Positions 26,582 to 57,498 are shown, counted from the first letter of the whole stretch. The stretch: 62,263 bases of DNA, filler included, from Candidatus Zapsychrus exili (GCA_030765585.1; 4 parts of 4 records of this genome joined end to end with filler, not necessarily neighbours in it); one strand, 5' to 3'. Translations and numbers: made by a program. The notes: a model not told the origin generated them from the sequence alone.

Positions 26582-26681
26582 NNNNNNNNNNNNNNNNNNN
26601 NNNNNNNNNNNNNNNNNNNNNNNNNTTAATTAATTAANNNNNNNNNNNNNNNNNNNNNNNNNNNNNNNNNNNNNNNNNNNN
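26582..26681. other. Assembly gap with TTAATTAATTAA linker
   Basis: N runs flanking an all-frame stop linker. Confidence 0.99.
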
Positions 26682-26772
26682 GGGGAGAGGGTTAGGGTGA
26701 GGGGCTTTTATTCTTACCCCTCATCTCTGTCTTCCTAAAGAAAGACAGGTCTTCTCCCCAAAGGGGAGAAGG
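26682..26772. repeat. GGGAGAGGGTTAGGGTGAGGG / CCCTCA...CTCCC palindromic repeat
   Basis: Inverted arms with nested hairpin, at the contig end. Confidence 0.65.
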
Positions 26773-26878
26773 AAAAAAGAATTATTAAATAATTTTAAAG
26801 TGTTACCAAAATAGTGAAGAATTACACTGCCGGTAGGCACGTAAAGTCCCGTTGGGACCACGTCCCTTTACGGGCAGG

Positions 26879-26990
26879 GAGCGACTGCCTCCTAAGCAGT
26901 AGGCCACACGTTTGACCACAATCTTCCTTCTTTTTTAGGAAAGATTGGGGCCCGCAAGCAAAGCGCAGCGGATTCGTGTCAGGCGCACCA
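26879..26990 (+). pseudogene. tRNA-Arg(CCT) remnant with 57-nt insertion in T-loop and no recognisable 5' acceptor strand
   Basis: GAGC-G-ACTGC-CTCCTAA-GCAGT-AGGCC-ACACG-TTTGA[26916-26972]TT-CGTGT-CAGGCGC-ACCA. Confidence 0.8.
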
Positions 26991-27109
26991 GTTTTTGTCA
27001 AAAAGCTTTCGCATTTGGTTTTTGAGATTTGAGATTTCTTATCTTGTATCTGTCTTTTATTGCAACGTTTTACATAAAATTAGCAATTATAAAAAAACTT
27101 CAAATCTTA

Positions 27110-27138
27110 TTGACACTATATTCTTTATATGCCAAAAT
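27110..27138 (+). promoter_or_regulatory. Sigma70-like promoter of porin gene
   Basis: TTGACA-N17-CAAAAT with extended -10 TG. Confidence 0.55.
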
Positions 27139-27319
27139 AGTTGAGAATTTTCAAAGCACCAGTGACGGTTCTAATATAGCTATGAAAGGGGGGATAAAAA
27201 AGTTTAGGCTAGGGATTGTCATAAAACTGGATCCGTGGGTGTAAAAACATAGGCTTCTTATCAAAGTCTATTTTATTATAAATAAATTTAAAAAATCGTT
27301 ATTTTAACGAGGAGAAGAT

Positions 27320-28729
27320 ATGAAAAAATTATTATTAGCGTTAGTTATTGTGGCTTTAGTTGCCGCACCGGCTTTTGCTAGCGTACAAAATGTTAAGGTA
27401 AGTGGAAGCATTGATTCTACTTTACTTAACAGACAAGGTTTTGATTTAGGAGCTGCTTCAGCTTCTAACGAAAGTGATATAAGACAAAATCTTTTTATCA
27501 CTCAAACTAACTTACAAGTTGATGCAGATTTAACTGACAATGTATCAGCAACTGTTGCTCTTATTAATGAGAGAGTATGGGGTTCAACTGCTTCTGAAGG
27601 AGATACAGGTATAGACCTTCAATTAGCTTATGTTACCTTAAGAGAAATGCTTTATTCTCCGTTAACAGTTGTTATTGGTCGTCAAGCACTTGCTTATGGA
27701 AACAGCCTTATTGTTTCTTCAGCTTCTACAAGCGCAGGTATAGGCAATTCAGGTTTATCAAGCACTGCTAATGATCTAAGTGGACAAACAGGATTAGATG
27801 CTGTTCGTGCTATTTTAGATTATGATCCATTAACTGTAGATATCGTTTATGCTAGACTTTCATCAGGTGTTGTAACTGATGCTGCTGGCGATCCTACAAA
27901 TAATGATGATACTAATCTTTATGGTATCAATGCAACATATGAACTTGGTGATGACAAAGATACACAAGTTCAAGCTTATGTATTTGCAAAAAGAAGCAGA
28001 ACTCTTAATGGAGCAGCTAATCTTGGGGCAAAAACTGATACAGTTTATGTGCCTGGTATTTTAGTTAGCACTAATCCATTAGAAGATGTAACTCTTTCTG
28101 TTGAATATGCTCATCAAAGTGGTACAAGAGCATCTACAGATGCTTTAGATAACCAGCAAAGAGATGCAGACGCTGCACAACTTATTGCTTCTTACGCTGT
28201 ACCAGTTTTAGAAGATTATAACCCAGTACTTCAGTATTCTTATACATTCACATCTGGTGAAAATGATCTTGACACAGTAAATGCTTCTGGAAATAATGGA
28301 GTTAATAATGAAATTATTACTGGATGGGACCCAATGCTTGAAAATCAAGGTAAGGGAACTATCTACAATGCACTTTTTGCTTTAACAAATTGCCAAATTC
28401 ACTCTATTTCACTTACAACAAATCCAATAGAAGACTTAACAGCGACATTATCTTGGACTGGCCTATGGACAGCTCAAAAGATTCATGATTCTGGTGATGT
28501 AGATTTATTCCAACCAGATGGAAGCGCTACAGCTTCTACTGTAAATAACGTTGGCGTTGCTGGAAAAGATGAAATAGGTAATGAAATAGATTTAGTTCTA
28601 ACTTATGCTTACACTGAAGATGTTACAATTGGTGCTAACTTAGGTTGGTTCTTCCCAGGTGATGGAATTGATGCAGATCATCAAGAAGTAGCTTCACAAG
28701 CATTAATTAATGTTAATGTAGACTTCTAA
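27320..28729 (+). CDS. Outer-membrane beta-barrel, alginate-export (AlgE-like) family; probable major porin
   Basis: Signal peptide AFA, amphipathic strands, IGRQ.L.YG, EIGNEIDL, terminal Phe; RBS GAGGAG. Confidence 0.8.
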   Translation: MKKLLLALVIVALVAAPAFASVQNVKVSGSIDSTLLNRQGFDLGAASASNESDIRQNLFITQTNLQVDADLTDNVSATVALINERVWGSTASEGDTGIDLQLAYVTLREMLYSPLTVVIGRQALAYGNSLIVSSASTSAGIGNSGLSSTANDLSGQTGLDAVRAILDYDPLTVDIVYARLSSGVVTDAAGDPTNNDDTNLYGINATYELGDDKDTQVQAYVFAKRSRTLNGAANLGAKTDTVYVPGILVSTNPLEDVTLSVEYAHQSGTRASTDALDNQQRDADAAQLIASYAVPVLEDYNPVLQYSYTFTSGENDLDTVNASGNNGVNNEIITGWDPMLENQGKGTIYNALFALTNCQIHSISLTTNPIEDLTATLSWTGLWTAQKIHDSGDVDLFQPDGSATASTVNNVGVAGKDEIGNEIDLVLTYAYTEDVTIGANLGWFFPGDGIDADHQEVASQALINVNVDF

Positions 28730-28744
28730 GTAGTTTATAGAATT

Positions 28745-28779
28745 AAAAAAGGGGCATGCGTTTGCATGTCCCTTTTTTT
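28745..28779 (+). terminator. Intrinsic terminator after porin
   Basis: A6-GGGGCATGC-loop-GCATGTCCC-T7. Confidence 0.85.
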
Positions 28780-29025
28780 GTGTAGACTACTAGAGATTGC
28801 GCTCTTATCAGGATATTCATTGTAGAGCGTAATACTAATAATTTAAAAGGCCCTCGGGATTTCCCGAGGGCCTTTTAATAGAAGTTTTTTGGGGCATGTT
28901 TATACATGCCCCCTTTTTTTATGCAAATTTACAATAAATTAATTAGGGACAGAGTGAGTTCAAAGTTCTAATGCAACGCTTTAATAAGAAATAGTTAGTA
29001 AAAATATTATAGCTTTAAAAAAGTC

Positions 29026-29228
29026 TGTCATCCCTGCGAAGGCAGGGATCTGGTTAAAATTTTGATAGAAATTTTAACCATCTTGAACGAAGTGAAAGAT
29101 ATTTATTTAGATCCTTTGATAAGCTCAGGATGATTGTAGTTTTATTAAAAATTACAATCAGATTCCTGCCTTCGCAGGAATGACAGGTAAAGGTGCAGGA
29201 ATGGCAGGTAAAGGTGCAGGAATGACAG
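29026..29228. repeat. Composite TGTCATCCC...GGAATGACA repeat with nested element and 21-bp tandem tail
   Basis: TGTCATCCCTGCGAAGGCAGGGATCT ... AGATTCCTGCCTTCGCAGGAATGACA; GCAGGAATGRCAGGTAAAGGT starting at 29174, 29195, 29216. Confidence 0.85.
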
Positions 29229-29464
29229 CAAGCATTGCACTAGCATCTTGAATCTGTACAATTAACTTATGTTCGCTAACGCTTCATAAGTTAAGTACTC
29301 ATTTAAAATAATTGAAATAATATTTTAACTTATATTCTTTATCTGCTATTATAAAAATACTTCACACCCCAAGTGTTCTAACCTCATTGTTTCTTTAGGG
29401 TTATAATCGAGTAACTAGCTTAAATATAATAAGTTTAATTTATATACTAGAGGGTAATTTATTT

Positions 29465-30052
29465 ATGAGTAGAGATGATATTTATGATCATTTGGCGCAA
29501 GTCTATTTAGGCAAACGCAAAGAAGTGGTAAAAGAGAAAAAGAAAAAGTTTAGTGCTTGGCTTGTTATAAACATTTTCACGACGATAATAATATTCTTGA
29601 GTGTTGTTTATGGGCTAACCGCTTTCTTAGCGCAGAAAGGTTTTAGCTTAAAGAGTGGAATAATTTTTTCTCTTCATAGAGGTCCTATACGTGTTGAATA
29701 TAACTTTGAAGATTCATTTCCTCCGGTCAAAACTTTTTCTTTAAGCATTCCTAATGCTTTAAACGCAAAGAAATATAGTAGTTTACAATTTTCTGTTAGA
29801 GCGAAGGAAGAAGGAACACCTGGTGTTATTAAAATAATTTTAAAGAATAGAAAGAATGAAGAATCTTTTTATTATATACAAAACATAAATTTAAAATGGC
29901 AAAAAATAAATATATCGCTAGACGAATTTCGTCAAATTACTGATTGGAGCAATTTAACAGATATATCTTTCGTTTTAGAATCTTGGAACGTAGATGATGA
30001 CAGCGGAATTATTTTAATTGATGATGTTTGTTTTGGTGGTATTAGAAGTTGA
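29465..30052 (+). CDS. Membrane-anchored carbohydrate-binding (CBM11/galactose-binding-like) protein
   Basis: One TM; 'LQFSVR...WQKINISLDEF..ITDWSNL.DISFV...G.I.IDDV.F'. Confidence 0.7.
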   Translation: MSRDDIYDHLAQVYLGKRKEVVKEKKKKFSAWLVINIFTTIIIFLSVVYGLTAFLAQKGFSLKSGIIFSLHRGPIRVEYNFEDSFPPVKTFSLSIPNALNAKKYSSLQFSVRAKEEGTPGVIKIILKNRKNEESFYYIQNINLKWQKINISLDEFRQITDWSNLTDISFVLESWNVDDDSGIILIDDVCFGGIRS

Positions 30053-30108
30053 TCAAATGTTAAGATTTCTCGTATAAGAGAATTTAAAAATAGGGGGCAA
30101 TAAAAAAA

Positions 30109-31230
30109 ATGAAAATTATTTCTATCGCAAATCAGAAAGGCGGATGTGGCAAAACAACAACAGCTATTAATCTTGCCTCATCTTTAAGTCTAAATGGAAA
30201 GAAAGTTCTTCTGGTAGATCTTGATCCGCAGGCACATGCTTCTTTAGGGCTTGATATTGAAAGCCAAGATAGCATTTATAATGTTATTTCATCTCTTACT
30301 CCACGAAAGCTAGAGATAAAAGATATAATAAAAACAGTAGAAGATCGTTTTGATATTGTTCCTTCAAATGTTTTGGTAGGAACTTTAGAACAAGAATTGT
30401 CTGATGAGATAGGTAGAGAAAGAAAGCTGCTTATGGTAATTGAGCAAGTAAAAGAAGAATATGACTATGTTCTTATAGATTGCCCTCCATCTTTAGGAAT
30501 ACTAACCGTAAATGCAATAAGAGCAAGTGATGAGATAATTGTGCCGGTTGAGACAAGCAGATTTTCTCTTCAAGGTGTTGAGCAGTTAACAGAGATAGTA
30601 AATCTTGTTAAGGATAGACTTAATCATAGCGTTAAGATGCAAGTATTGATTACAATGTTTGATTCTAGACTTAGGCATTCGTTCTCAATGTTGGCAACTT
30701 TTAAAGAGAGATTTAAAGATATATTGCTTGATACTATAATTCATATAAATGTTAAGTTAAAAGAATCTGCTGTTATGGGAAGAACTGTTGCTTGTTATGA
30801 TAAATATTGTCGTGGAGCCAAAGATTATCATATGTTGGCTAAAGAGTTGATTTCTATGGAGAAGAAAGAAGAATCAGATGATACAATCCAAATTCTTTCT
30901 AAACCATTCTCAAAAAGAATGGAAAAGGTTGTTACAGAAGAAATAAAGAATCTATTTCCGGTCAAGTTTTCAATCGAAGCCCCCGATGCACAAGCAGTGT
31001 ATATAACAGGAAGTTTTAATGATTGGGCTTTGGATGAATCGTATAGATTAAAGCAAATAGATGGAAGATGGACTGCTGATATTCCTTTACGTCAAGGAGT
31101 ACATAAATATCAATTTATTGTAGATGGCGTTTGGAAAGAAGATCCAAGTAATGAACAAAAAGAAAGAAATTCTTTTGGAGATGTGAATTCTATTGTTGAG
31201 GTGAAGGTCAATGACCAAGTCCTCGCTTAA
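30109..31230 (+). CDS. ParA/Soj ATPase fused to C-terminal CBM48/AMPK-beta glycogen-binding domain
   Basis: NQKGGCGKTT, DLDPQAHAS, IDCPPSLG; C-terminal 'APDAQAVYITGSFNDW...GRW...G.HKYQFIVDGVWKEDPSN...FGDVNS'. Confidence 0.9.
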   Translation: MKIISIANQKGGCGKTTTAINLASSLSLNGKKVLLVDLDPQAHASLGLDIESQDSIYNVISSLTPRKLEIKDIIKTVEDRFDIVPSNVLVGTLEQELSDEIGRERKLLMVIEQVKEEYDYVLIDCPPSLGILTVNAIRASDEIIVPVETSRFSLQGVEQLTEIVNLVKDRLNHSVKMQVLITMFDSRLRHSFSMLATFKERFKDILLDTIIHINVKLKESAVMGRTVACYDKYCRGAKDYHMLAKELISMEKKEESDDTIQILSKPFSKRMEKVVTEEIKNLFPVKFSIEAPDAQAVYITGSFNDWALDESYRLKQIDGRWTADIPLRQGVHKYQFIVDGVWKEDPSNEQKERNSFGDVNSIVEVKVNDQVLA

Positions 31231-31537
31231 AGAAGAAAAATATATCTTCGAAGGAAAGATGTTTGCCGTACTTTCCTACCTTTCAATCCTTTGTATTATT
31301 CCTTTAGTTTTTAAAAGAGAAAACTCGTTTGTGCTTAATCACGGAAAACAAGGCCTTGTTATATTTGTCGGAGAGGTTGCTATATTTATTGTGCATATTA
31401 TTTTAGGTCTATGGATTTTACGTATAGGTATGTTTATATTTGGAGTATTCTCTTTTATAGGTATTATTAGTGTTTTAAAAGGTCAAAGTATAAAGCTTCC
31501 GTTAGTTTCAGATATTGCAGATAAAATAATTTTATAA
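31211..31537 (+). CDS. DUF4870-like small membrane protein
   Basis: AVLSYL..L..IPL...FVLNHGKQGL, GII.VLKG...KLPLV. Confidence 0.8.
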   Translation: MTKSSLKEEKYIFEGKMFAVLSYLSILCIIPLVFKRENSFVLNHGKQGLVIFVGEVAIFIVHIILGLWILRIGMFIFGVFSFIGIISVLKGQSIKLPLVSDIADKIIL

Positions 31538-31548
31538 AGCTTAAAATC

Positions 31549-32217
31549 ATGCCAATAGTTGATAATGTTATTGATTCTTTAATTAAATATTTACAAAAGA
31601 AAAAAAGAATACGTAAACGTAAGACAAAGCCTGCAAAGAAAAAAACTGTAAAAAGCCTCGCTTTAAAAAGAACAAAGAAAAAACCTGCCAAAAAGAAGTC
31701 TTCAGTAGTAAAAAAGGAATCTATCAAAAAGAAGGTTGTCAAAAAAAAGGTAGCTAAGAAAAAGGTTGTTGCAAAGAAACCTGCTAGAAAGAAAGTTGTA
31801 AAAAGGAAAACCGTACCTGCAAGAAAAAAGCTTGTTAAGAAAAAGGTACGAAAAAAAGCTGCAAAGAAAAAAGTTGTAAAGAAGAAAGTAATCAAGAAAA
31901 AATCACCTGCAAAGCGTAAGGTAGTCAAGAAAGTATCTTTATCTGTAAAGAAAAGCATTGGTAAGGAGAAAAAATGGGTTGAAATAGGTGAGATAACTCA
32001 TTATTTTTCAAGAATAATGGTAGCAGTGGTTAAAATTACGAAAAAAGACTTAAAAGTAGGCGAAACAATACAAATAAAGGGTAGAATATCAAGTTTTACG
32101 CAAAAGATTAAATCGCTTCAGGTTGAGAGTGTTGATGTAAAAAGCGCTAAAAAGGGTCAATTAGTAGGCCTCCAGATAGATAAACCCGCCAAAGTAGGTA
32201 ACAAAGTACTCAAATAA
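31549..32217 (+). CDS. Histone-H1/Hc2-like Lys-rich protein with C-terminal EF-Tu-domain-II-like barrel
   Basis: KKKVV/KKPA repeats; 'IGEITHYFSRIMVAVV...LKVGETIQIKG...FTQKIKSLQVE...AKKGQLVGL'. Confidence 0.75.
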   Translation: MPIVDNVIDSLIKYLQKKKRIRKRKTKPAKKKTVKSLALKRTKKKPAKKKSSVVKKESIKKKVVKKKVAKKKVVAKKPARKKVVKRKTVPARKKLVKKKVRKKAAKKKVVKKKVIKKKSPAKRKVVKKVSLSVKKSIGKEKKWVEIGEITHYFSRIMVAVVKITKKDLKVGETIQIKGRISSFTQKIKSLQVESVDVKSAKKGQLVGLQIDKPAKVGNKVLK

Positions 32218-32310
32218 TACTATAATCACTCCACATTGCGACATAAAATAGATATATTATGATACTATAGTTCCACTTAACTTATTTTTAAGTAGCATCT
32301 TTTTTATGCA

Positions 32311-32352
32311 TAGGTACCGTACCCCTTTTAGCTAAAAGGGGTACGGTACCTA
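32311..32352. repeat. Perfect 42-bp palindrome
   Basis: TAGGTACCGTACCCCTTTTAG/CTAAAAGGGGTACGGTACCTA. Confidence 0.85.
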
Positions 32353-32599
32353 TATTTGGGTATTATGTTTCACTATCTATTATTTTTCAAAAAAGATTGG
32401 TTTGAGTTCTTTTAGATTCGGTCTGCGCGGACCGAATTCGCCAGGCGCCTGGCGAATTGAGAAATAGGTATTTTAAATCCTAAATGTTTAATACGTAGTT
32501 ATAGCTAGGAAAAATATAAATTTAATAAGTTTTTTGTATTTGATAATAGGTTGCTTGTAAGTTGCTTAAAAGTTTTTAGTATGGTATATTTAGAGTACG

Positions 32600-32791
32600 A
32601 TGAAATTTATGAAGAATAATAAAAATGGACAGAATATCGTAGAATACCTATTAATCTTTTCAATAGTTGTTCTTATTATCTTTATAGCGTTAGGGCCGAA
32701 TGGTTTTATGACAAAATCTATAAAAGACTCTTTGGACACATCTATTTCAGGTATAGAATCAATGGCGAATAATCTTAATTACGAAGAGTAG
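32600..32791 (+). CDS. Flp/type IVb pilin-like protein
   Basis: Class III signal 'KNG|QNIVEYLLIFSIVV' with E+5/Y+6 and hydrophobic helix. Confidence 0.75.
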   Translation: MKFMKNNKNGQNIVEYLLIFSIVVLIIFIALGPNGFMTKSIKDSLDTSISGIESMANNLNYEE

Positions 32792-32804
32792 ATTTATATA
32801 TATA

Positions 32805-32859
32805 AAAAAGGGACAGGTAAGAGATATGTGTTTGCATATCTCTTACCTGTCCCTTTTTT
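32805..32859. terminator. Long hairpin, bidirectional terminator between convergent genes
   Basis: AAAAAGGGACAGGTAAGAGATATG-loop-CATATCTCTTACCTGTCCCTTTTT. Confidence 0.8.
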
Positions 32860-32872
32860 ATTGTATGAAATA

Positions 32873-33118
32873 TTATGGATTTCGCCTTCGCATATCTTTA
32901 AGCTTTTGTTTATTATCTTGTATCATTTTTTTGCGCTGTCTTTCTGTTTCTTCAATGCGCTCCTGCTGCTCTCTTCTAGCATCATAAGTGTCATAATTTA
33001 TAGCTTTCTTAGGAGCTGAGGTTATTTTTGCAAGAATCCTCATTGTTCCAAGAAATAAACCAATTGCGACAATGGTGCCTGTTACTGCTATAACTACTGT
33101 ATCAGAATCAATTTTCAT
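32873..33118 (-). CDS. Small single-TM coiled-coil protein
   Basis: N-terminal TM, charged helical tail. Confidence 0.6.
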   Translation of the reverse strand: MKIDSDTVVIAVTGTIVAIGLFLGTMRILAKITSAPKKAINYDTYDARREQQERIEETERQRKKMIQDNKQKLKDMRRRNP

Positions 33119-33539
33119 GAATGAGAACCTAACTTATGGAGCCGATTTTTTATGAGGTGAATCTGCTTGCCGGCAGGCAGGCATCAAGTTAGCCTGTTTG
33201 AATTTATACTTGATGCTTCTGTGTGATTGCATCAAGTATTTCAATAGGTCATATCTGTGAGGCTGCGGCCCAGCAGCCGAGCAGATGTACTATCTAAAAA
33301 ATATTATAAAACGAAAACTCATTTTAATCAAGCTAACTAATTAAAGTTAATGATGGATAGAAATATCCATTATTGCTATAATATAATAAATTAAACACGA
33401 AATACTAAATTCGAAACTCGAAATAAACTTAAAATAACAAAATAAAATATTCCATGTATTTGTTTTTACTGTTTTGGTTTTGACATTGTTAGGATTTCGA
33501 TATTAGGATTTAGAATTTATTTAACACTTGGAGGTAAAG

Positions 33540-33857
33540 ATGCCGGACAAACATGATTTTCATAAAGATTGGGAAATCGCAAAGAAACATCTTGTAAAAT
33601 TTAGCAAAGAAGCTGTTAAGGTGGCTAAGAAAAGTGAAAAAGAAATATTTAGATTGTCTAAAATAAGTAAGATACAAATTGATTCTACAGCAGCGGGATT
33701 AAAGAAAGAACAGCTTTATTATTTAATAGGAAAAGAATATATTGCGTCAAAAGATCCTGCTAGTAGTGAGAAATTGAAACGTCTCGTCGAAGATCTTGAC
33801 AAATTGACTAAAAAACAGGCTAGTTTAAAAAGTAAGCTTAAAAGTGAAAAGTTATAA
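33540..33857 (+). CDS. Hypothetical helical protein
   Basis: GGAGG RBS before ATG 33540. Confidence 0.65.
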   Translation: MPDKHDFHKDWEIAKKHLVKFSKEAVKVAKKSEKEIFRLSKISKIQIDSTAAGLKKEQLYYLIGKEYIASKDPASSEKLKRLVEDLDKLTKKQASLKSKLKSEKL

Positions 33858-34362
33858 TTTGTATAAGGGCTGTCTTTGCAAAGAGATTGCCCTTAGAACA
33901 ATATTTATTTGTTTTTTTCTAGTGTTATTTTCTAATCTGGCGTTTTGTCAAGAACCTGCCTCAGACATTGATATAACAGAGTATGGAATAAAAGGATATT
34001 CTGAATCTGTTACTATTTTTCCTCCCAGAGAAAAAGAAATACTCAGAAAGTTCCTTAAAAAGGAACTCGTAGATCAGGAGCCTGAAGAGCAAGAACTCAA
34101 AAAGGACATAGTAGAGGTTTTTGTTGCAGGCCAGAAGTTTGATTCAATTAATATTTATAGGGATCAAAAGCTCAAAACAGAGACTTTTGAAGATTTGGCT
34201 GACAATGAGTCTGTCGAAAGCATGATAGAGGAAACTCGTAATCTCCATAAAGAGATATCTGAATATGAAAATGACTTAAGTCAAGATGCTGAAAGCTCTA
34301 AAAAAAGAGATATATTTATAGTTGATCCAAAGAAATTAAAGACAATTATTATAGAAAAGTAG
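33844..34362 (+). CDS. Hypothetical exported protein
   Basis: Hydrophobic N-terminal segment, acidic body; start uncertain. Confidence 0.5.
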   Translation: MKSYNLYKGCLCKEIALRTIFICFFLVLFSNLAFCQEPASDIDITEYGIKGYSESVTIFPPREKEILRKFLKKELVDQEPEEQELKKDIVEVFVAGQKFDSINIYRDQKLKTETFEDLADNESVESMIEETRNLHKEISEYENDLSQDAESSKKRDIFIVDPKKLKTIIIEK

Positions 34363-34452
34363 CTTAGGCTTTAGTTGTCTGATTTAAAGGTCCTCAAAGA
34401 AATGCCTGTCATTAGTTAGAAATTCATGATATAAGAGACCCACTGTTAGCGC

Positions 34453-34481
34453 TTGACTAATACAGAGGGCGATAGTATAAT
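34453..34481 (+). promoter_or_regulatory. Sigma70 promoter of rpsO-pnp
   Basis: TTGACT-N17-TATAAT. Confidence 0.75.
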
Positions 34482-34564
34482 ACCGCACTAATAATTATTA
34501 TATAAGATAATAATAGGTATAAAGAATAAATATAAAGGTTATATATAAACAGGAGGAAATCAAG

Positions 34565-34834
34565 TTGGTTTTAGAAAAACAAGAAAAAACAGATGTAATT
34601 GATAATTTTAAAGTTCATGCTAAAGATACAGGTTCTCCGGCAGTGCAGATTGCGCTTTTGTCAGAGAAGGTTAACTATCTTACAGAGCATTTTAAGGCAC
34701 ACAAAAAGGATTTTCATTCTCGTCGAGGTCTTTTAATGATGATTGGTAAAAGACGTCGTCTTTTGGCCTACCTTAAGAAAACTGATCAAAGCAAGTATCA
34801 AGAAACTATCGAAAAATTAAAACTACGTAAGTAA
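34565..34834 (+). CDS. rpsO: 30S ribosomal protein S15
   Basis: [27 protein letters not shown] start after AGGAGG. Confidence 0.98.
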
Positions 34835-34854
34835 AATTAAGTGAGGATATTTTA

Positions 34855-36963
34855 ATGAGTGTAAGCCAAGTAAAGGCCCTGTTAGGGTCTAAAGAAATAA
34901 TAATTGAGACTGGAAAATTAGCAAAACAGGCTAATGCAGCTGTAACGGTAACTTGTGGTGGTACAGTTGTTTTGGTTGCTGTTTGTATGTCAAAAAAACA
35001 TAAGGAAGGTATTGATTTCTTTCCTTTGATGGTTGAATACCAAGAAAAAACTTATGCCGCAGGAAAAATACCTGGCGGATTTTTTAAACGCGAAGGAAGA
35101 CCTACACAAAAAGAGATTTTAACTTGTCGCTGTATAGATAGACCAATAAGACCACTTTTTCCAGAAGGAATGTTTAATGAGGTTGTAGTCACTAATACTG
35201 TTTTAAGCAGTGATGGTGAAAATGATCCGGATATGTTAGCTATTGTTGGAGCATCAGTTGCGCTTCATATATCTGATATTCCGTTTGATGGCCCTATAGG
35301 TGCTTGTCGTGTTGGTTTAGTTGAAGATAAGTTCGTATTAAATCCAACTTATGAAGAAAGAGAAGCAAGTCCTCTGGATTTAGTTGTTGTTGGAGTAAAA
35401 GACGGTATTGTTATGATAGAAGGCGAATGCCTTGAGATACCTGAAGATAAAGTGGGAGAAGCGCTTGTTTTTGCACAAAAAGAACTTCAACCTATTATTG
35501 AAGCTCAAAATAAGTTTAGAGCGGAAGTTGGAAAAGAGAAAAAAGATGTTAAGCTTTTTAATCCTCATCCAGAATTAAAGAACAAAGTTTCTGAGCTTTG
35601 TTTAGATAAAGTTACAAAAGCATATGCAACAGCTGATAAAGAAGAGCGCGAAAGCGCACTTAGCGCAGCTTTAGACGAAGCATTGTCTGATATGAGTATT
35701 TATGATGAATATAAGGCAGAAGGCGCAGAAGAAGTTCCTGCAGGTCATATTAGAATGATGTTTGATAAAATAGAGTATGAAGTGGTGAGAAAATCTATTT
35801 TTGAGAAAGAACTAAGAGCTGATGGTAGAGGACTTAAAGACGTAAGAGAAATCACTTGCGAAATAGATCCACTTCCTCGTACTCATGGTTCAGCATTATT
35901 TACTAGAGGTCAAACTCAAAGTTTAGCTGTTGTAACTCTAGGAACCAAGCGTGATGAACAAATGATAGAGTCTTTAAACGGACTTTCTTATAATAATTTT
36001 ATGCTTCATTATAATTTTCCTGCATTTAGTGTAGGGGAAGCAAGAGGAAGCCGCGGACCTGGAAGAAGAGAAATTGGTCATGGTGCCTTAGCTGCTAAAG
36101 CCCTTAAAGGTGTTATGCCTACTAAGGAAGAATTTCCTTATACTGTTCGTATCGTTTCAGAAACTCTTGAATCAAACGGATCATCTTCGCAGGCAAGTGT
36201 TTGCGCTGGATGTTTAAGTTTGATGGCAGCAGGCGTTCCTATTAAAGCTACAATTGCAGGAATTTCAGTTGGTCTTCTTTTAGGAGAAGGTGGAAAGTAT
36301 TCACTTTTAACTGATATTATGGGGCTTGAAGATCATTTTGGCGATATGGATTATAAAATAGCAGGTTCTAAAAAAGGTATTACTGCTATACAACTTGATC
36401 TTAAGGTAAAAGGCGTTCCTGTTGAAATTTTACTAGAAGGAATACAACAAGCAAGAGAAGCTCGTTTAGAAATTCTAGAAAAAATGGAAGCAACTATTGC
36501 AAAGCCTAAAGAGGACACATCAGAATTTGCTCCTCGTATTGTTACCACAAAAGTACCTCAAGATAAAATTGGTGAGGTAATAGGTCCTGGTGGTAAGGTA
36601 ATTAAGAAAATTATTGAAGAATGCGGAGTTGAATCAGTTGACATAAATGACGAAGGTACAGTATTAGTCGCATCTATGAGCAAAGAATCAGCAGAAAAAG
36701 CATTAGCATATATAAATGGTTTAGTTGAAGTGCCTGTTGTAGGTAAGATTTATGATGCTGTCATAAAAAGAGTTGAAAATTTTGGAGCTTTTTGTGAATA
36801 TCTACCTGGTAAACAAGGCTTAATTCACGTCTCTGAGGTATCAAAAGAATATGTTAAAGATATCAATACAGTAGTTAAGGTTGGAGACGCTATAAAAGTT
36901 AAGCTTTTTGAAATTGACAAGATGAATAGAGTTAACTTGAGTATTAAAAAAGTTGACGATTAG
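34855..36963 (+). CDS. pnp: Polyribonucleotide nucleotidyltransferase
   Basis: GKIPGGFFKREGRP, RREIGHG, ESNGSSS, KH and S1 domains. Confidence 0.98.
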   Translation: MSVSQVKALLGSKEIIIETGKLAKQANAAVTVTCGGTVVLVAVCMSKKHKEGIDFFPLMVEYQEKTYAAGKIPGGFFKREGRPTQKEILTCRCIDRPIRPLFPEGMFNEVVVTNTVLSSDGENDPDMLAIVGASVALHISDIPFDGPIGACRVGLVEDKFVLNPTYEEREASPLDLVVVGVKDGIVMIEGECLEIPEDKVGEALVFAQKELQPIIEAQNKFRAEVGKEKKDVKLFNPHPELKNKVSELCLDKVTKAYATADKEERESALSAALDEALSDMSIYDEYKAEGAEEVPAGHIRMMFDKIEYEVVRKSIFEKELRADGRGLKDVREITCEIDPLPRTHGSALFTRGQTQSLAVVTLGTKRDEQMIESLNGLSYNNFMLHYNFPAFSVGEARGSRGPGRREIGHGALAAKALKGVMPTKEEFPYTVRIVSETLESNGSSSQASVCAGCLSLMAAGVPIKATIAGISVGLLLGEGGKYSLLTDIMGLEDHFGDMDYKIAGSKKGITAIQLDLKVKGVPVEILLEGIQQAREARLEILEKMEATIAKPKEDTSEFAPRIVTTKVPQDKIGEVIGPGGKVIKKIIEECGVESVDINDEGTVLVASMSKESAEKALAYINGLVEVPVVGKIYDAVIKRVENFGAFCEYLPGKQGLIHVSEVSKEYVKDINTVVKVGDAIKVKLFEIDKMNRVNLSIKKVDD

Positions 36964-36974
36964 AAATAAAAATT

Positions 36975-37045
36975 GTAGGGGCGGGCCTTGCGTCCGCCCT
37001 TTTAATAATAATTGTTATTAGGGCGGACGCAAGGCCCGCCCCTAC
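36975..37045. repeat. REPIN: perfect inverted pair of GTAG REPs
   Basis: GTAGGGGCGGGCCTTGCGTCCGCCCT (36975-37000) and its reverse complement (37020-37045). Confidence 0.9.
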
Positions 37046-37071
37046 GTAAGAATCAAACATCCCCAACATCT

Positions 37072-39339
37072 ATGAAACAAGAGCATATTAGCGAAATCAA
37101 AGCTGTTATTATTTTAGCGATTGGCATGATTCTTTTGGCCAGTCTTATTTCATTCTCTCCACAAGATTTATCTTGGTACACTTCTGTGCCAAACAATCCA
37201 GCAAGCAATCTTATTGGGGTAACAGGCGCAACTTTGGCCGGAACTCTTTTATTCTTATTTGGATATAGCTCATATGTTTTGGTTATATTCTTGTTTTTTT
37301 GGAGCTGGAATAAATTTTCATTTCAAGATATAAAATTCTCATTTTTAAAATTTGTAGGCGCACTTATATTTATTTGTGCTATTAGTTCTTTGTTTAGTAT
37401 GCTAGGAAATCAAGATGCCTCTATGCGTTTTGCTCGAGCAGGGATAGCAGGATATTTCATATCAGACTTTCTAATTCAATATATAGGCAGAACAGGTGCG
37501 TATATAATAATTATTGTGCTTGGAACACCGCTTGCATTAATCGTTACGGGAGAATTCTTAGTAACTACTCTTTTTGTAAAACTATTTGAGAAATTAGGAG
37601 AACTGTTTGAAATGTTATCAGGGTATTTGCAGGAAAAAGATTTTAAGTTTTCTAATATTTTTTCAAAAAAAGAAAAGCTCGTTGGTGTAAAGAATAGCAT
37701 ACTAGAGAAAATTTTACGCGTAAAGAATAAAGCAGCATCTAAGGTAGATGAAGAGGAAGAAGAGTGCGAAGAAGAAGATCCTGAAGAAGAGGAAGAAGAT
37801 GAAGAGGAAGAATTTGTCAGATCAAAAGCCAAGCCAAAAATAAATATAGCTTCGAACAGCCAGTCTGAAGATGATGAAGAAGACGAAGATGAGCCAAAGA
37901 TAGTTGGAGAATACAAATTGCCTCCAATGGATTTGCTTGAAGACCCGCCAGTCGTATCAAAAGATAAAATACAAGACGGTTTAATGGATGGGGCAAAACT
38001 GTTAGAAGAAACGCTCGCGAATTTTGGCGTTGTTGCTCGTGTTGCAGATATAGAGCATGGGCCTGTTATCACAAGGTATGAATTAGAACCAGCACCTGGT
38101 GTTAAGGTTCAGAAGTTTACAGCTTTAGCAGATGATATTGCTCTTGTAATGAAAGCACATACTGTGCGTATTGTTGCACCTATACCTGGTAAAAATAGAG
38201 TAGGAATTGAGGTTCCTAATTCTGACTCTAGTTTTGTTTTTCTAAAAGAGGTTTTAATGACGCCTGAATTTAAGAATAGCGATTCAAAGCTTATGATGGC
38301 TTTAGGAAAAGATATATCTGGTTCGCCTATGATCGCTGATTTAGCTGAAATGCCGCATCTTATGATTGCTGGTACAACGGGTAGCGGTAAATCTGTTTGT
38401 GTAAATAGTATTATTATGTCTATGCTTTTAAGGGCATCACCTGATGAAGTTAAGATGGTTATGGTTGATCCAAAGATGGTTGAGCTTGCTCGTTATAATG
38501 GTATACCACATCTATTAAGTCCGACGGTAACAGATCCAAAAAAGGCTGCTTCTGTTTTAGCTTGGGTTGTAGGTGAAATGGAAAATCGTTATAAGAAATT
38601 GTCTAAGGAAGGCGCTCACAATATTAAGGTGTATAATGAAACAGAATTTAGACTTCCATATATTGTTGTTATAATCGATGAGTTAGCAGATCTTATGCAA
38701 GTGTCAGCTAAGAGCGTTGAGAGTTCTATTACAAGAATTGCTCAATTATCGCGTGCAGTAGGAATTCATCTTATACTTGCGACACAGCGTCCATCAGTAG
38801 ATGTTATAACTGGCGTTATTAAGGCAAACTTTCCTGCAAGAATTTCATTTAAAGTAGCGTCTAAGGTTGATTCGCGTACGGTTTTGGATATGAATGGAGC
38901 AGAGGCATTGTTAGGAAAAGGTGATATGCTGCTTATTAAACCTGGAGATGCTAAGCCTGCTCGTGGCCAAGGCAATTTTATAAAAGAAAAAGAAATATCA
39001 AAGGTTATACAATTTATTAAGGATCAGCAAGAAGCATCGTATGATAATAGTATATTAGAAAAACAAAAGAGTGGTGCGATTTTAGGAAGCGATGAAAAGG
39101 ATGAATATTATGATGAGGCGGTTAAACTTGTAGTTGAAACTAATCAGGCGTCTGTTTCAATTTTACAAAGAAGACTTCGGTTAGGATATACACGTGCAGC
39201 AAGATTGATTGATATGATGGAACAAAATGGCATTGTAGGGCCTTATTGCGGAAGCAAGCCAAGGGATATTCTAGTCGACAGACAACAATGGCTAGTTGAA
39301 AATATGTCTGATGAAGACGAGGGAGAAGAAGATGAGTGA
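37072..39339 (+). CDS. ftsK: DNA translocase FtsK
   Basis: 4TM N-terminus, IAGTTGSGKS, IIDELADLM, ATQRPS, gamma domain QRRLRLGYTRAARLID; start moved past REP. Confidence 0.97.
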   Translation: MKQEHISEIKAVIILAIGMILLASLISFSPQDLSWYTSVPNNPASNLIGVTGATLAGTLLFLFGYSSYVLVIFLFFWSWNKFSFQDIKFSFLKFVGALIFICAISSLFSMLGNQDASMRFARAGIAGYFISDFLIQYIGRTGAYIIIIVLGTPLALIVTGEFLVTTLFVKLFEKLGELFEMLSGYLQEKDFKFSNIFSKKEKLVGVKNSILEKILRVKNKAASKVDEEEEECEEEDPEEEEEDEEEEFVRSKAKPKINIASNSQSEDDEEDEDEPKIVGEYKLPPMDLLEDPPVVSKDKIQDGLMDGAKLLEETLANFGVVARVADIEHGPVITRYELEPAPGVKVQKFTALADDIALVMKAHTVRIVAPIPGKNRVGIEVPNSDSSFVFLKEVLMTPEFKNSDSKLMMALGKDISGSPMIADLAEMPHLMIAGTTGSGKSVCVNSIIMSMLLRASPDEVKMVMVDPKMVELARYNGIPHLLSPTVTDPKKAASVLAWVVGEMENRYKKLSKEGAHNIKVYNETEFRLPYIVVIIDELADLMQVSAKSVESSITRIAQLSRAVGIHLILATQRPSVDVITGVIKANFPARISFKVASKVDSRTVLDMNGAEALLGKGDMLLIKPGDAKPARGQGNFIKEKEISKVIQFIKDQQEASYDNSILEKQKSGAILGSDEKDEYYDEAVKLVVETNQASVSILQRRLRLGYTRAARLIDMMEQNGIVGPYCGSKPRDILVDRQQWLVENMSDEDEGEEDE

Positions 39340-40192
39340 TAATAGAGACAACTTAGACTCAGATCAGAAAGAACTTTCTAAAACAAATAGTTCAGATAAT
39401 CTCGAGAAAAAGTCTAAAGGGGAAATACTTAAGAATACAAGAAAAGAAAGAGGTCTTTCTTTAGATATTATTCACGAAGAAACAAAAATCCCAATGGATG
39501 TTCTTCGTGCAATAGAGGAAGGGTATAAGGTAAGGACGATATCTCCTTTTTATCTTAAAGGTTTTTTAAAGATATATGCTAATTATTTAGATGTAGATAT
39601 TAACAATGTGATAGAGGATTATAAAAAAGAAGAATTACCTAAACATATTAAATATACAGAGCCTGGAATAAATATATCTAAAAAGATATCTGAGGTTTTT
39701 ACAAGAAAAAGAAAACAGCAGATTGTATTAGTTGTTGGAGGGCTGATAGCATTGTTCCTTGTTTTTAAGATTCTTATGTTTGTTGTTCATGGCCTAGGCC
39801 CTAAAGAAGGTGTAAAAAAAGTTGCAGTAAGAAATGTTGTTAAAGCAACACAAAAGAAAACTCAAGAGAAGAAGTCCTCACAGCCAGTAGTTAAGTTGTC
39901 GACGAAGAAGTTGTCTTCTAAGAAAGTTCAAAAAAAAATAAATTTGGCTGTTAAGGCAAAGAGAGATAGTTTTCTCCTTGTTAAAGAAGATGGAAAAGAG
40001 GTTTCTCGATCTGTTTTAAGAGCTGGTGCTGTTGAGATGTGGTCAGCAAATGAAGAAATTGAGATATCAGGAAGACATATAAGCAGTTTAGAGCTTGAGT
40101 TAAATGGTAAACTGATAGGTGAATTAGGAAAAGATGATAGAAGAGTTAGGAAAGTTATAATTACAAAAGAAGGTCTATCTGTAACAAAATAA
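39332..40192 (+). CDS. rodZ: RodZ-like protein (HTH + TM + DUF4115)
   Basis: HTH 'ETKIP...AIEEG...YLKGFLKIYANYL', TM; ftsK-rodZ-rimO synteny. Confidence 0.85.
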   Translation: MSDNRDNLDSDQKELSKTNSSDNLEKKSKGEILKNTRKERGLSLDIIHEETKIPMDVLRAIEEGYKVRTISPFYLKGFLKIYANYLDVDINNVIEDYKKEELPKHIKYTEPGINISKKISEVFTRKRKQQIVLVVGGLIALFLVFKILMFVVHGLGPKEGVKKVAVRNVVKATQKKTQEKKSSQPVVKLSTKKLSSKKVQKKINLAVKAKRDSFLLVKEDGKEVSRSVLRAGAVEMWSANEEIEISGRHISSLELELNGKLIGELGKDDRRVRKVIITKEGLSVTK

Positions 40193-40262
40193 GGTTTAAG
40201 GATTAAGGTTCAAGGTATAAGACAACCCCGCACCATATTGGATGTGGGGTAAATTTTTTATT

Positions 40263-41292
40263 ATGAAAAAAACAGTAAATGTGCTTAATTTAGGTTGTGC
40301 CAGAAATTTGGTAGATTCTCAATCAATTCTAGGTAATTTAAAAAGAAAAGGTTATAGTGCCTCTGATTTAGAGGATGCAGAAACTGTTATAGTGAACACT
40401 TGCGGATTTATTGAGGATGCTAAAAAAGAATCTGTAGAAGCTATTTTAGAGTTAATTGATTTAAAAAAAGAGGGTAAGATAAAGAAAATTATTGTAGCTG
40501 GGTGTTTGTCCCAAAGATATAGCAATGAATTGTTAGAAGAATTTAAGGGCGATGTTGATGCTATTATAGGTGCGCAAAAGTTAGACAGCAAAGCTGTTGA
40601 GCCAGAAGTGTCTTTGACGCCTAAGCATTTTGCTTATATTAAAATTTGTGAAAGTTGTTATAACAATTGCAAGTTTTGTACTATTCCTATGATAAAAGGA
40701 AAATTTATATCAAGGACAATGGAGTCTATCATAGAACAGGTGAAAGAACTTGATAAGAGTGGGGTTTGCGAACTCAATATTATAGGTCAAGATATTACAG
40801 CTTATGGTATGGATATATATAAAAAACCAAGTCTTTCAGAATTGTTAAAGAAAATAGCAAAAGAAACAAAGAACATTAAATGGATTAGACTCCTGTATAC
40901 ATTTCCAGCGCATATTACCGACGAGTTAATCGATACAATAGCAGAAGAGGATAAAATCTGTAAATATATAGATATTCCGTTGCAGCATATAAACGATAAT
41001 ATTTTAACTGCTATGAATAGAAAAATAACAAAGCAGCAAACAATTGATTTGATAAAAAAGATAAGAGAGCGCATACCTTTTGCTCGCCTGCGTACTACAA
41101 TGATAGTTGGTTTACCTGGCGAAGGCGAAGATGAATTTTCTGAACTTCTTAGTTTTACCCAAGACATGAAATTTGAAAGATTAGGCGCATTTATGTATTC
41201 TAGAGAAGAAGGCACGGCAAGTTATGATATGGCAAATCAAGTATCAAAAGAAACAAAACAAGTAAGATATAATGAATTAATGGAATTGCAGA
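40263..41292 (+). CDS. rimO: Ribosomal protein S12 methylthiotransferase RimO (3' truncated by gap)
   Basis: LGCARNLVDS, VNTCGFI, CxxxCxFC, YIDIPLQH, YSREEGT. Confidence 0.93.
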
Positions 41293-41392
41293 NNNNNNNN
41301 NNNNNNNNNNNNNNNNNNNNNNNNNNNNNNNNNNNNTTAATTAATTAANNNNNNNNNNNNNNNNNNNNNNNNNNNNNNNNNNNNNNNNNNNN
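41293..41392. other. Assembly gap with linker
   Basis: N runs plus TTAATTAATTAA. Confidence 0.99.
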
Positions 41393-57398: not shown

Positions 57399-57498
57399 NN
57401 NNNNNNNNNNNNNNNNNNNNNNNNNNNNNNNNNNNNNNNNNNTTAATTAATTAANNNNNNNNNNNNNNNNNNNNNNNNNNNNNNNNNNNNNNNNNNNN
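57399..57498. other. Assembly gap with linker
   Basis: N runs plus TTAATTAATTAA. Confidence 0.99.

Follow-up and report, generated by a model that had tools for sequence, protein, structure and literature searches.

A ParA-type ATPase fused to an AMPK-beta-type carbohydrate-binding module in Candidatus Zapsychrus exili, a possible tether for alpha-glucan granules

We analysed a 62,263-nucleotide stretch of DNA from Candidatus Zapsychrus exili (GCA_030765585.1), referred to below as the window, and focused on four co-oriented open reading frames (ORFs) at positions 29465-32217. The second of these encodes a fusion of a ParA/Soj-type ATPase with a carbohydrate-binding module (CBM) of family 48, of the type found in the beta subunit of AMPK. 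The reading that we prefer, tentatively and with slightly less than even confidence, is that the protein is an accessory (non-chromosomal) ParA/Soj-type ATPase with its own CBM48 adaptor, which may tether or position alpha-glucan granules. An earlier note on this DNA had described the four-gene run and the fusion. All four ORFs lie on the + strand within exactly the limits that it had claimed, and the ParA-linker-CBM48 fusion is real, with both domain models (Pfam AAA_31 and AMPK1_CBM) scoring over their cut-offs.

The window consists of contigs of a metagenome-assembled genome (MAG; 2.04 Mb, 96% complete) joined end to end. Because the N runs at window positions 26582-26681, 41293-41392 and 57399-57498 are joins of separate contigs, synteny cannot be read across them. 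The locus sits on the 14.6-kb contig C51 (window 26682-41292).

The known cargoes of ParA/MinD ATPases include chromosomes, plasmids, carboxysomes, chemoreceptor arrays and flagella. We know of no positioning system for a storage polysaccharide, and our literature searches found nothing published on ParA-driven glycogen positioning. The ParA-CBM architecture itself is already in print: in the parts accessible to us, a preprint of October 2026 (bioRxiv 10.64898/2026.10.19.760177) describes a fusion of ParA to AMPK1_CBM, placed in branch ConB5, as a 'CBM-containing system'. It reports two variants, one with an upstream protein that has a single transmembrane (TM) helix and a fast-evolving periplasmic CBM, and one with a second, inactive ParA and an inactive restriction endonuclease (REase).

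The fusion protein

The fusion gene (30109..31230, +) encodes 373 amino acids (aa), and its translation contains the three motifs on which the earlier note had relied, KGGCGKTT, GSFNDW and YQFIVDGVWKEDP. Residues 1-250 (30109..30858, +) form a ParA/Soj-type deviant Walker A ATPase domain, which matches Pfam AAA_31 over residues 1-177 (E 6.2e-57, 192.8 bits against a cut-off of 27). The best match in the PDB is the ParA structure 8RAY (E 2.3e-51), followed by the Soj proteins of H. pylori (HpSoj) and T. thermophilus (TtSoj), with matches ranging to 1e-38. The KGGCGKTT motif, the signature Lys and the Walker A' aspartates D37 and D39 place the domain in the deviant Walker A ParA/MinD family. In an alignment of 61 fusion-family proteins (A2), K10 (the signature Lys), K15 (Walker A), D37, D39, D185 and R187 are invariant (61/61).

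The protein shares the deviant Walker A motif, the signature Lys, the 'DSR' arginine and the 'NVK' lysine with chromosomal ParA/Soj proteins (8RAY; HpSoj, 6IUB/8JMJ; TtSoj, 1WCV), but differs from them in forming a separate clade, in having no adjacent parB and in its C-terminal linker and CBM. It does not classify as the ParA (Soj) of a chromosomal ParABS system, with no ParB_N on contig C51, a score of 120.3 bits against the cut-off of 180 for NCBIfam ParA_partition, and a separate position in the tree. Nor is it of the MinD type, as its C-terminus is a CBM and no NCBIfam minD model comes near its cut-off. The match to Pfam CBP_BcsQ has 46.9 bits. A canonical parA-parB pair is present on contig C77 of the same genome, to which the fusion is extra, and the description of the latter as an orphan ParA is therefore apt. 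The genome also encodes a third ParA-like ATPase of 275 aa on contig C54 (L025:5395-7005), preceded by a PAS/LuxR regulator and followed by a HAMP-domain protein, which is possibly of the chemoreceptor-array type (ParC/PpfA-like).

Residues responsible for non-specific DNA binding have been described in HpSoj (K199, K227, K230 and K247) and BsSoj (R189 and R218) (PMC6393308). We placed the HpSoj residues on the window protein by hand from the PDB alignment: K230 corresponds to K216, and the region around K199 holds R187 and R189. Across alignment A2, Lys or Arg is found at the position of K216 in 52/61 proteins, K218 in 59/61, K232 in 53/61 and R235 in 48/61. Nucleoid (DNA) binding by the fusion ATPase is plausible from this pattern of basic residues.

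The ATPase domain is followed by a flexible linker rich in Glu and Lys (residues 251-287; 30859..30969, +). In 61 homologs the linker is 17-110 aa long, with a median of 40, and E and K are its most frequent residues. The AMPK-beta-type CBM48 comprises residues ~288-369 and, together with the C-terminus and stop codon, occupies 30970..31230 (+). Pfam AMPK1_CBM (PF16561) matches residues 291-369 (E 2e-15, 57.2 bits against a cut-off of 26.8) and has no other match in the genome; the Pfam CBM_48 model stays under its cut-off (19.9 bits against 22.4). In a search of the PDB, the 15 best-ranked hits are all AMPK beta CBM chains, headed by 1Z0M, the CBM of rat AMPK beta1 (E 4.6e-11).

In the 1Z0M alignment, W100 of AMPK beta1 corresponds to W306 of the window protein, K126 to Q335, W133 to W342, L146 to F356, T148 to D358 and N150, which we take to have a carbohydrate-binding role, to N360. 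The first five touch the carbohydrate, and mutating them lowers glycogen binding (McBride et al., 2009; PMC2642990). Both sugar-stacking Trp residues (W306 and W342) occur without exception in the fused proteins compared (70/70), which span several phyla; the equivalent of K126 is K, R or Q, and that of N150 is N or D in 68/70. Compared with the AMPK beta CBM (CBM48; 1Z0M/1Z0N), the module thus keeps the equivalents of W100, W133 and N150, whereas K126 is replaced by Q (K or R in most homologs), L146 by F or Y and T148 by D, and it is bacterial and fused to an ATPase, with no kinase scaffold. The assignment to the AMPK-beta type is well founded on the 1Z0M match, the PF16561 score and the two Trp residues, and the module is predicted to bind alpha-1,4/1,6-glucan.

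In a tree of ATPase domains (83 rows; quick IQ-TREE, LG+G4), the canonical ParA of the genome and Bacillus Soj split off with an SH-aLRT of 94, leaving a clade that includes all 70 fused proteins. Within it, a sister clade of seven members (SH-aLRT 100) has, where the fused proteins have the CBM, a disordered acidic tail that ends with SSYSxM[IV]E. These CBM-less ParA genes lie at ~6000-7200 of loci L070, L071, L073, L074, L075, L077 and L079, from MAGs mostly labelled Desulfobacterota/Thermodesulfobacteriota. The tail would seem to be an alternative C-terminal adaptor of this ATPase subfamily, and because it replaces the CBM, the C-terminus looks like an exchangeable adaptor position. A one-clade test on the label 'fused' (p 3e-12) was discarded, as 2/11 rows labelled 'nocbm' were genes cut by contig ends.

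Distribution and divergence

The closest named homologs of the fusion are all from Candidatus Omnitrophota, and we determined its distribution in a panel of 251 Omnitrophota genomes that are at least 80% complete. A full-length match (E<=1e-75) was found in at least 96/251 genomes; this count is a lower bound because more divergent fusions occur in families f8 and f19. The fusion is present in 22/22 genomes of the order to which the window belongs and is single-copy in 95/96 positive genomes. By family its presence is mostly all-or-none (full-length match in 32/36 genomes of f18, 6/6 of f24, 11/15 of f7 and 0/15 of f8). Outside Omnitrophota, the fusion is scattered over many phyla with changing neighbours, and MAGs of Myxococcota, Desulfobacterota and Spirochaetota are among the candidate carriers there. 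Matches to PF16561 occur in 217/251 genomes, a tally that we rejected as a count of fusions, as many of the matches are stand-alone proteins of ~100 aa. Such stand-alone AMPK1_CBM proteins (~95-135 aa) are found in many Omnitrophota genomes beside or instead of the ParA fusion, for example in L106 (G051:C5:70118-70336) and L108 (G025:C7:7499-7720), and may be a split form or an independent glycogen-binding protein.

Rates of divergence were compared in 16 genomes that encode both the fusion and the canonical ParA, using the percentage identity of each to its counterpart from the window. The pairs of values (fusion, canonical ParA) are 63 and 70% (G077), 58 and 62% (G259), 58 and 60% (G262), 54 and 56% (G254), 54 and 54% (G258), 50 and 59% (G055), 50 and 56% (G101), 52 and 58% (G246), 49 and 52% (G041), 46 and 61% (G190), 44 and 59% (G189), 43 and 58% (G256), 44 and 57% (G097), 43 and 56% (G004), 42 and 58% (G261), and 40 and 57% (G033). 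The fusion diverges slightly to moderately faster than the canonical ParA of the same genomes. Within the fusion, the median identity to the window protein is 61% in close and 46% in distant loci for the ATPase domain, and 44 and 37%, respectively, for the CBM.

A search of the four proteins against PADLOC-DB 2.0 (library of 2023) gave two matches to the ATPase, limited to the P-loop (22-24 bits), and none for the other three, and there are no defence genes on contig C51. The core-gene behaviour and the conserved ligand site fit a housekeeping role better than that of an arms-race sensor.

The operon and its conservation

We compared 80 related loci, of which 69 have the fusion, two are cut by contig ends and nine have ParAs without a CBM. 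In the 44 closer loci (L026-L069), a phmmer search found ORF1 directly upstream of the fusion in 44/44, ORF4 in 38/44 and ORF3 in 27/44; in the other 36 loci (L070-L105), phmmer found none of these three partners. The expected conservation of the operon is thus borne out within Omnitrophota, where the gene order is kept, but not elsewhere: ORF3 and ORF4 were not found there, and ORF1 has distant relatives that surfaced only through clustering and alignment.

The first gene of the run, ORF1 (29465..30052, +), encodes 195 aa. It matches no Pfam family, the match to TMEM107 being sub-threshold. In an AlphaFold2 model (pLDDT 87.4), residues 3-15 form a helix, which is followed by a basic stretch, a TM helix (31-57) and a beta-sandwich (75-191; 29687..30037, +). 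In Foldseek, the best match of the sandwich is the CBM11 structure 1v0a (E 8.7e-7, TM-score 0.45-0.51), and CBM30, CBM4 and CBM28 score alike. The idea of a TM protein with a CBM11-like domain therefore holds at the level of the fold. The positive-inside rule predicts a periplasmic location for the sandwich. No other part of the cluster evolves as fast: the sandwich has a median identity of 32% in close and 15% in distant loci, although W145 is invariant.

The N-terminal peptide of ORF1 (residues 1-20; 29465..29524, +), with the motif IY[DE]HLAxxYL, is its best-conserved stretch apart from a few residues of the sandwich. L10, A11 and Y14 are kept in at least 90% of 50 sequences, and the median identity of the peptide is 53% in close loci, against the 32% of the sandwich, and 27% in distant ones. 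The peptide would be cytoplasmic in the same orientation and constitutes a putative ParA-docking peptide; ORF1 is a candidate partner of the fusion ATPase. A complex prediction for a ParA(1-262) dimer with ATP, Mg and ORF1(1-32) scored 0.08, against a mark of 0.32.

ORF3 (31211..31537, +; 108 aa) starts 20 nucleotides (nt) before the end of the fusion gene and encodes a small polytopic membrane protein. Its proposed likeness to DUF4870 did not stand, as both the window protein and a homolog stay below the threshold (14.2 bits against a cut-off of 25).

ORF4 (31549..32217, +; 222 aa) consists of an N-terminal helix (residues 2-22), a disordered tail rich in Lys and Arg (~23-140) and a conserved C-terminal beta-barrel (144-222). 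In alignment A3 the K/R-rich tail is variable, while the C-terminal domain of 80 aa is conserved, with a median identity of 42% in close loci; it was not found in distant ones. The AlphaFold2 model of the domain has pLDDT values of 96-98. Foldseek matches it to the C-terminal domain of a U32 peptidase (4he5; E 2.2e-6, TM-score 0.90, root mean square deviation 1.1 Å) and also to domain 2 of EF-Tu, and the Atlas groups ORF4 with clusters named 'translation elongation factor-like protein'. The earlier note had taken ORF4 for a histone-like protein. Its score is 17.6 bits against the Pfam HC2 cut-off of 40, and 15.9-17 against cut-offs of 80-135 for NCBIfam models of the HC2/H1 type. The likeness is one of composition, and because the conserved domain is a beta-barrel of the EF-Tu-domain-2/U32-C type with a basic tail, ORF4 does not belong to a histone family. 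The tail probably binds nucleic acid. A comparison with PhaF had also been drawn. Like the PhaM/PhaF tethers between granules and nucleoid, ORF4 has a long K/R-rich tail and is encoded beside a gene related to a storage polymer; unlike them, it has a barrel instead of a phasin or PhaM domain, and we identified no granule-binding element in it, so that the PhaF-like reading fails on the conserved part of the protein.

Among 22 distant fused loci, for which 84 of 121 neighbouring ORFs were run against Pfam, the neighbours are heterogeneous. Six of the 22 have an upstream protein of 240-290 aa with the plan of ORF1, that is, an LAxxY[FL] peptide followed by a TM helix and then by a sandwich containing a W[QK]K motif. 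In 6/22, a degenerate ParA-like protein is encoded downstream of the fusion, and in 7/22 the downstream partner starts with LG[RK]GLxD[IV]SxxFLS, which resembles the N-terminus of the genome's own ParB (ALGKGLSALI).

Both variants in the accessible parts of the preprint (bioRxiv 10.64898/2026.10.19.760177) were thus recovered independently here, the one with an upstream protein of the ORF1 type and the one with a degenerate second ParA downstream. The ParA-AMPK1_CBM fusion and the upstream protein with a single TM helix and a CBM-like domain (44/44 closer loci) are the same as in that system. The Omnitrophota operon adds ORF3 and ORF4, of which those parts make no mention, and its main text does not name Omnitrophota.

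An outer-membrane beta-barrel porin similar to Alginate_exp (27320..28729, +; Pfam Alginate_exp E 3.6e-13) is encoded upstream of the run, and 30/44 closer loci have a homolog of the porin no more than 6 kb upstream. A terminator-like hairpin with a T-run (28891..28912, +) parts it from the four-gene unit, and a hairpin search found no terminator-like site between 29465 and 32700. The porin gene is probably a syntenic neighbour in a separate transcription unit. The 735 nt between it and ORF1 (28730-29464) contain neither an ORF of at least 50 aa nor a match to Rfam (an Rfam search of the entire contig C51 matched no family), and presumably contain the promoter or leader of the operon; promoter-like sites there are at consensus level only.

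ORF4 is followed by a gene for a 63-aa protein (32600-32791, +) with a weak class III (pilin-like) signal peptide, homologs of which come after ORF4 in 8/44 closer loci. Contig C51 also encodes rpsO, pnp and a MiaB/RimO-like enzyme, with rpsO-pnp found downstream in 6/44 closer loci. Beyond rpsO and pnp, 5 kb downstream on the same strand, lie ftsK (775 aa) and a gene for an HTH_25/RodZ-like protein (37012-40192, +), and the neighbourhood therefore includes genes for cell division and shape. Neither parB nor a glycogen enzyme is adjacent to the fusion, as had been claimed, and none is present on the whole contig.

Alpha-glucan genes

The genome contains glgC (500 bits, over cut-off) and glgP (1081 bits). 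A cluster on contig C27 encodes GlgE, GlgB with a CBM48, a GH57/DUF3536 protein and MalQ, and there are a TreS-Mak fusion on contig C35 and a GT4/GT5-like transferase on contig C65. The best match to the glgA model TIGR02095 in the genome stays below the cut-off (87.6 bits); the C65 enzyme and the GlgE route remain as candidates for glucan synthesis.

Co-occurrence was examined in two panels. Among 20 Omnitrophota genomes without any AMPK1_CBM, GH57 is present in 16/20, glgC in 13/20 (E<=1e-60) and a phosphorylase over cut-off in 6/20; two genomes of family f22 lack CBM, GH57, glgC and phosphorylase alike. In 15 CBM-positive, strict-GlgP-negative genomes, GH57 and glgC are each present in 15/15. 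GlgP itself (E<=1e-30; 110/251 genomes) was dropped as a discriminator: it scores 0/19 for the CBM-less families, yet also 0/17 for five CBM-positive families. The earlier note had proposed a check of co-occurrence with glycogen genes and had named carriers without glycogen synthesis as a ground for refutation. Neither this nor its other computable ground, an unconserved gene order, applies. Alpha-glucan genes are present in every carrier tested but are also frequent in non-carriers, so that the support from co-occurrence is one-directional and weak, and related genomes are non-independent samples.

Possible functions

The preferred reading, that the fusion tethers or positions alpha-glucan granules, would involve a mechanism of the following kind. 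The ATP-bound dimer would bind the nucleoid non-specifically through the conserved basic patch, and the CBM on its flexible E/K-rich linker would hold glycogen-like granules, which would be tethered and spread along the nucleoid and shared at division, as in an McdA-like Brownian ratchet that does without a separate adaptor. ATP hydrolysis and release would be triggered by an operon partner, through the cytoplasmic N-terminal peptide of ORF1 and/or the basic tail of ORF4, and the periplasmic CBM-like domain of ORF1 would in addition couple the system to the envelope. The binding of the fusion to DNA and to glucan, the docking of its partners and any role in positioning are predictions. Like McdA and other ParA/MinD cargo positioners, which the introduction of the preprint also lists, the fusion is an orphan ParA that occurs beside a canonical ParAB and has a candidate partner with a short N-terminal peptide or basic tail; it also seems to keep much of the nucleoid-binding patch. 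It differs in that the adaptor is fused to the ATPase and in that the candidate partners, a membrane protein and a basic beta-barrel protein, are not McdB-like.

This reading is supported by the scores of both domains, the intact catalytic and sugar-stacking residues, the presence of a canonical parAB elsewhere and the modular C-terminus. It is further supported by the alpha-glucan genes in the genome and in the CBM-positive panel (GH57 and glgC, 15/15), by a housekeeping-like pattern with rpsO, pnp, ftsK and a RodZ-like gene as flanks and no PADLOC match beyond the P-loop, and by the partners, with ORF1 adjacent in 44/44 loci, its N-terminal peptide kept, and a ParB-like peptide in 7/22 distant downstream partners.

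Several observations weigh against it. In many bacteria, glycogen occurs as numerous small, soluble particles, which may need no active partitioning. The fusion is dispensable for glycogen metabolism, given that CBM-negative genomes keep GH57 and glgC (16/20 and 13/20), and a glycogen enzyme is found near it in only 1/22 distant loci (L087) and nowhere on contig C51. Of the DNA-binding residues of HpSoj, K227 and K247 align to non-basic positions (I213/gap and Y233), although the basic K232 and R235 adjoin. Divergence in close loci is greater for the CBM than for the ATPase domain (median identities of 44 and 61%), and the fast-evolving globular domain of ORF1, with its predicted periplasmic location, fits a sensor better than a granule adaptor. 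From 'rapid divergence' and a 'sporadic' distribution, the preprint, in its accessible parts, infers an immune sensor (bioRxiv 10.64898/2026.10.19.760177); the fast-evolving sandwich and the fact that whole families have lost the fusion are compatible with that view.

The alternative that survives best, unlikely as it is, is a non-immune switch for carbon status, in which the CBM reports glycogen load to the ATPase as in AMPK, and granules are not moved; together with ORF1 and ORF3, the protein would regulate or localise an envelope process (glycan uptake or export via the porin) or cell division. Relatives of ParA/MinD such as BcsQ localise polysaccharide machines, which gives the CBP_BcsQ score of the fusion some weight here. 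The layout of ORF1, with its cytoplasmic peptide, TM helix and periplasmic CBM-like sandwich, would suit such a switch, as would the membrane protein ORF3 and the downstream ftsK and RodZ-like genes. The Alginate_exp-type porin is syntenic in 30/44 loci, but it is absent from the other 14 and is followed by terminator-like hairpins, and the cluster is without a conserved enzyme or transporter. The same CBM in AMPK is an allosteric glycogen sensor (PMC2642990). However, in distant carriers the fusion occurs in the absence of ORF1, ORF3 and the porin, and the basic patch of nucleoid-binding ParAs seems to be largely retained.

Less probable still is an immune or conflict system, as proposed in the accessible parts of the preprint (bioRxiv 10.64898/2026.10.19.760177), in which the CBM, as a lectin, would sense an infection-linked carbohydrate and the ParA would multimerise and limit the invader. 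The signal would be phage glycans, fragments of cell wall or capsule, or the depletion of a polysaccharide, and the upstream TM protein would add a periplasmic carbohydrate sensor. That source describes exactly this architecture and both variants found here. The rapid evolution of the ORF1 sandwich (medians 32 and 15%), the faster divergence of the CBM than of the ATPase domain, the scatter over many phyla with changing neighbours outside Omnitrophota, and the absence of the fusion from whole Omnitrophota families all agree with it. The 'sporadic, rapidly diverging' pattern that it reports is nevertheless not what we find in this lineage, apart from the fast sandwich and the scatter in other phyla: here the gene is single-copy, all-or-none in most families and present in 22/22 genomes of the order, and it has a fixed syntenic position beside the porin with rpsO-pnp-ftsK downstream. 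Its identity is only slightly to moderately under that of canonical ParA (from 63 against 70% to 40 against 57% in the 16 genomes). The contig is without defence genes, the PADLOC matches are limited to the P-loop, and no effector domain is present. The invariance of the ligand-contacting Trp residues across phyla argues against an arms race at that site, although it would still allow the sensing of glycogen depletion. Because the gene is single-copy and universal in the order, with housekeeping neighbours and moderate divergence relative to canonical ParA, we favour a cell-biological role over immunity.

We consider it improbable that the 'CBM' has turned into a protein-protein module (E-set/Ig-like) without any glucan role that serves another cargo, such as a protein complex or a ribonucleoprotein with ORF4: AMPK1_CBM alone is over cut-off while CBM_48 is below, the equivalents of K126, L146 and T148 are Q, F and D in the window protein, ORF4 has a fold characteristic of translation factors, with rpsO and pnp close by, but both stacking Trp residues are invariant (70/70), the polar contacts stay K/R/Q and N/D, every tested carrier has alpha-glucan genes, and distant carriers do without ORF4. 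In our ranking, tethering or positioning of glucan thus comes first, followed by the carbon-status/envelope switch, the immune sensor and the non-glucan cargo, with the remainder left to other explanations.

Implications

In its broadest form, the preferred reading states that bacteria of many phyla actively organise glycogen, by means of a ParA with a built-in CBM48 that would tether granules to the nucleoid and partition them at division, its action being adjusted by a membrane partner that senses the periplasm. We regard this wider claim as possible but more doubtful than the tethering or positioning role by itself. If it is true, no earlier system would position a storage polysaccharide, and the protein would be the first ParA to contain its cargo adaptor within the ATPase itself. 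Tethering or partitioning of glycogen would add a new class of cargo and provide a minimal, adaptor-free ParA for mechanistic work; if instead the immune reading is true, the protein would act as a ParA effector triggered by a lectin. Two competing hypotheses, both directly testable, now stand for this gene, which belongs to the core of a large uncultured lineage, and the choice between them is informed by the core-gene behaviour, the invariant sugar site and the fast-evolving periplasmic partner.

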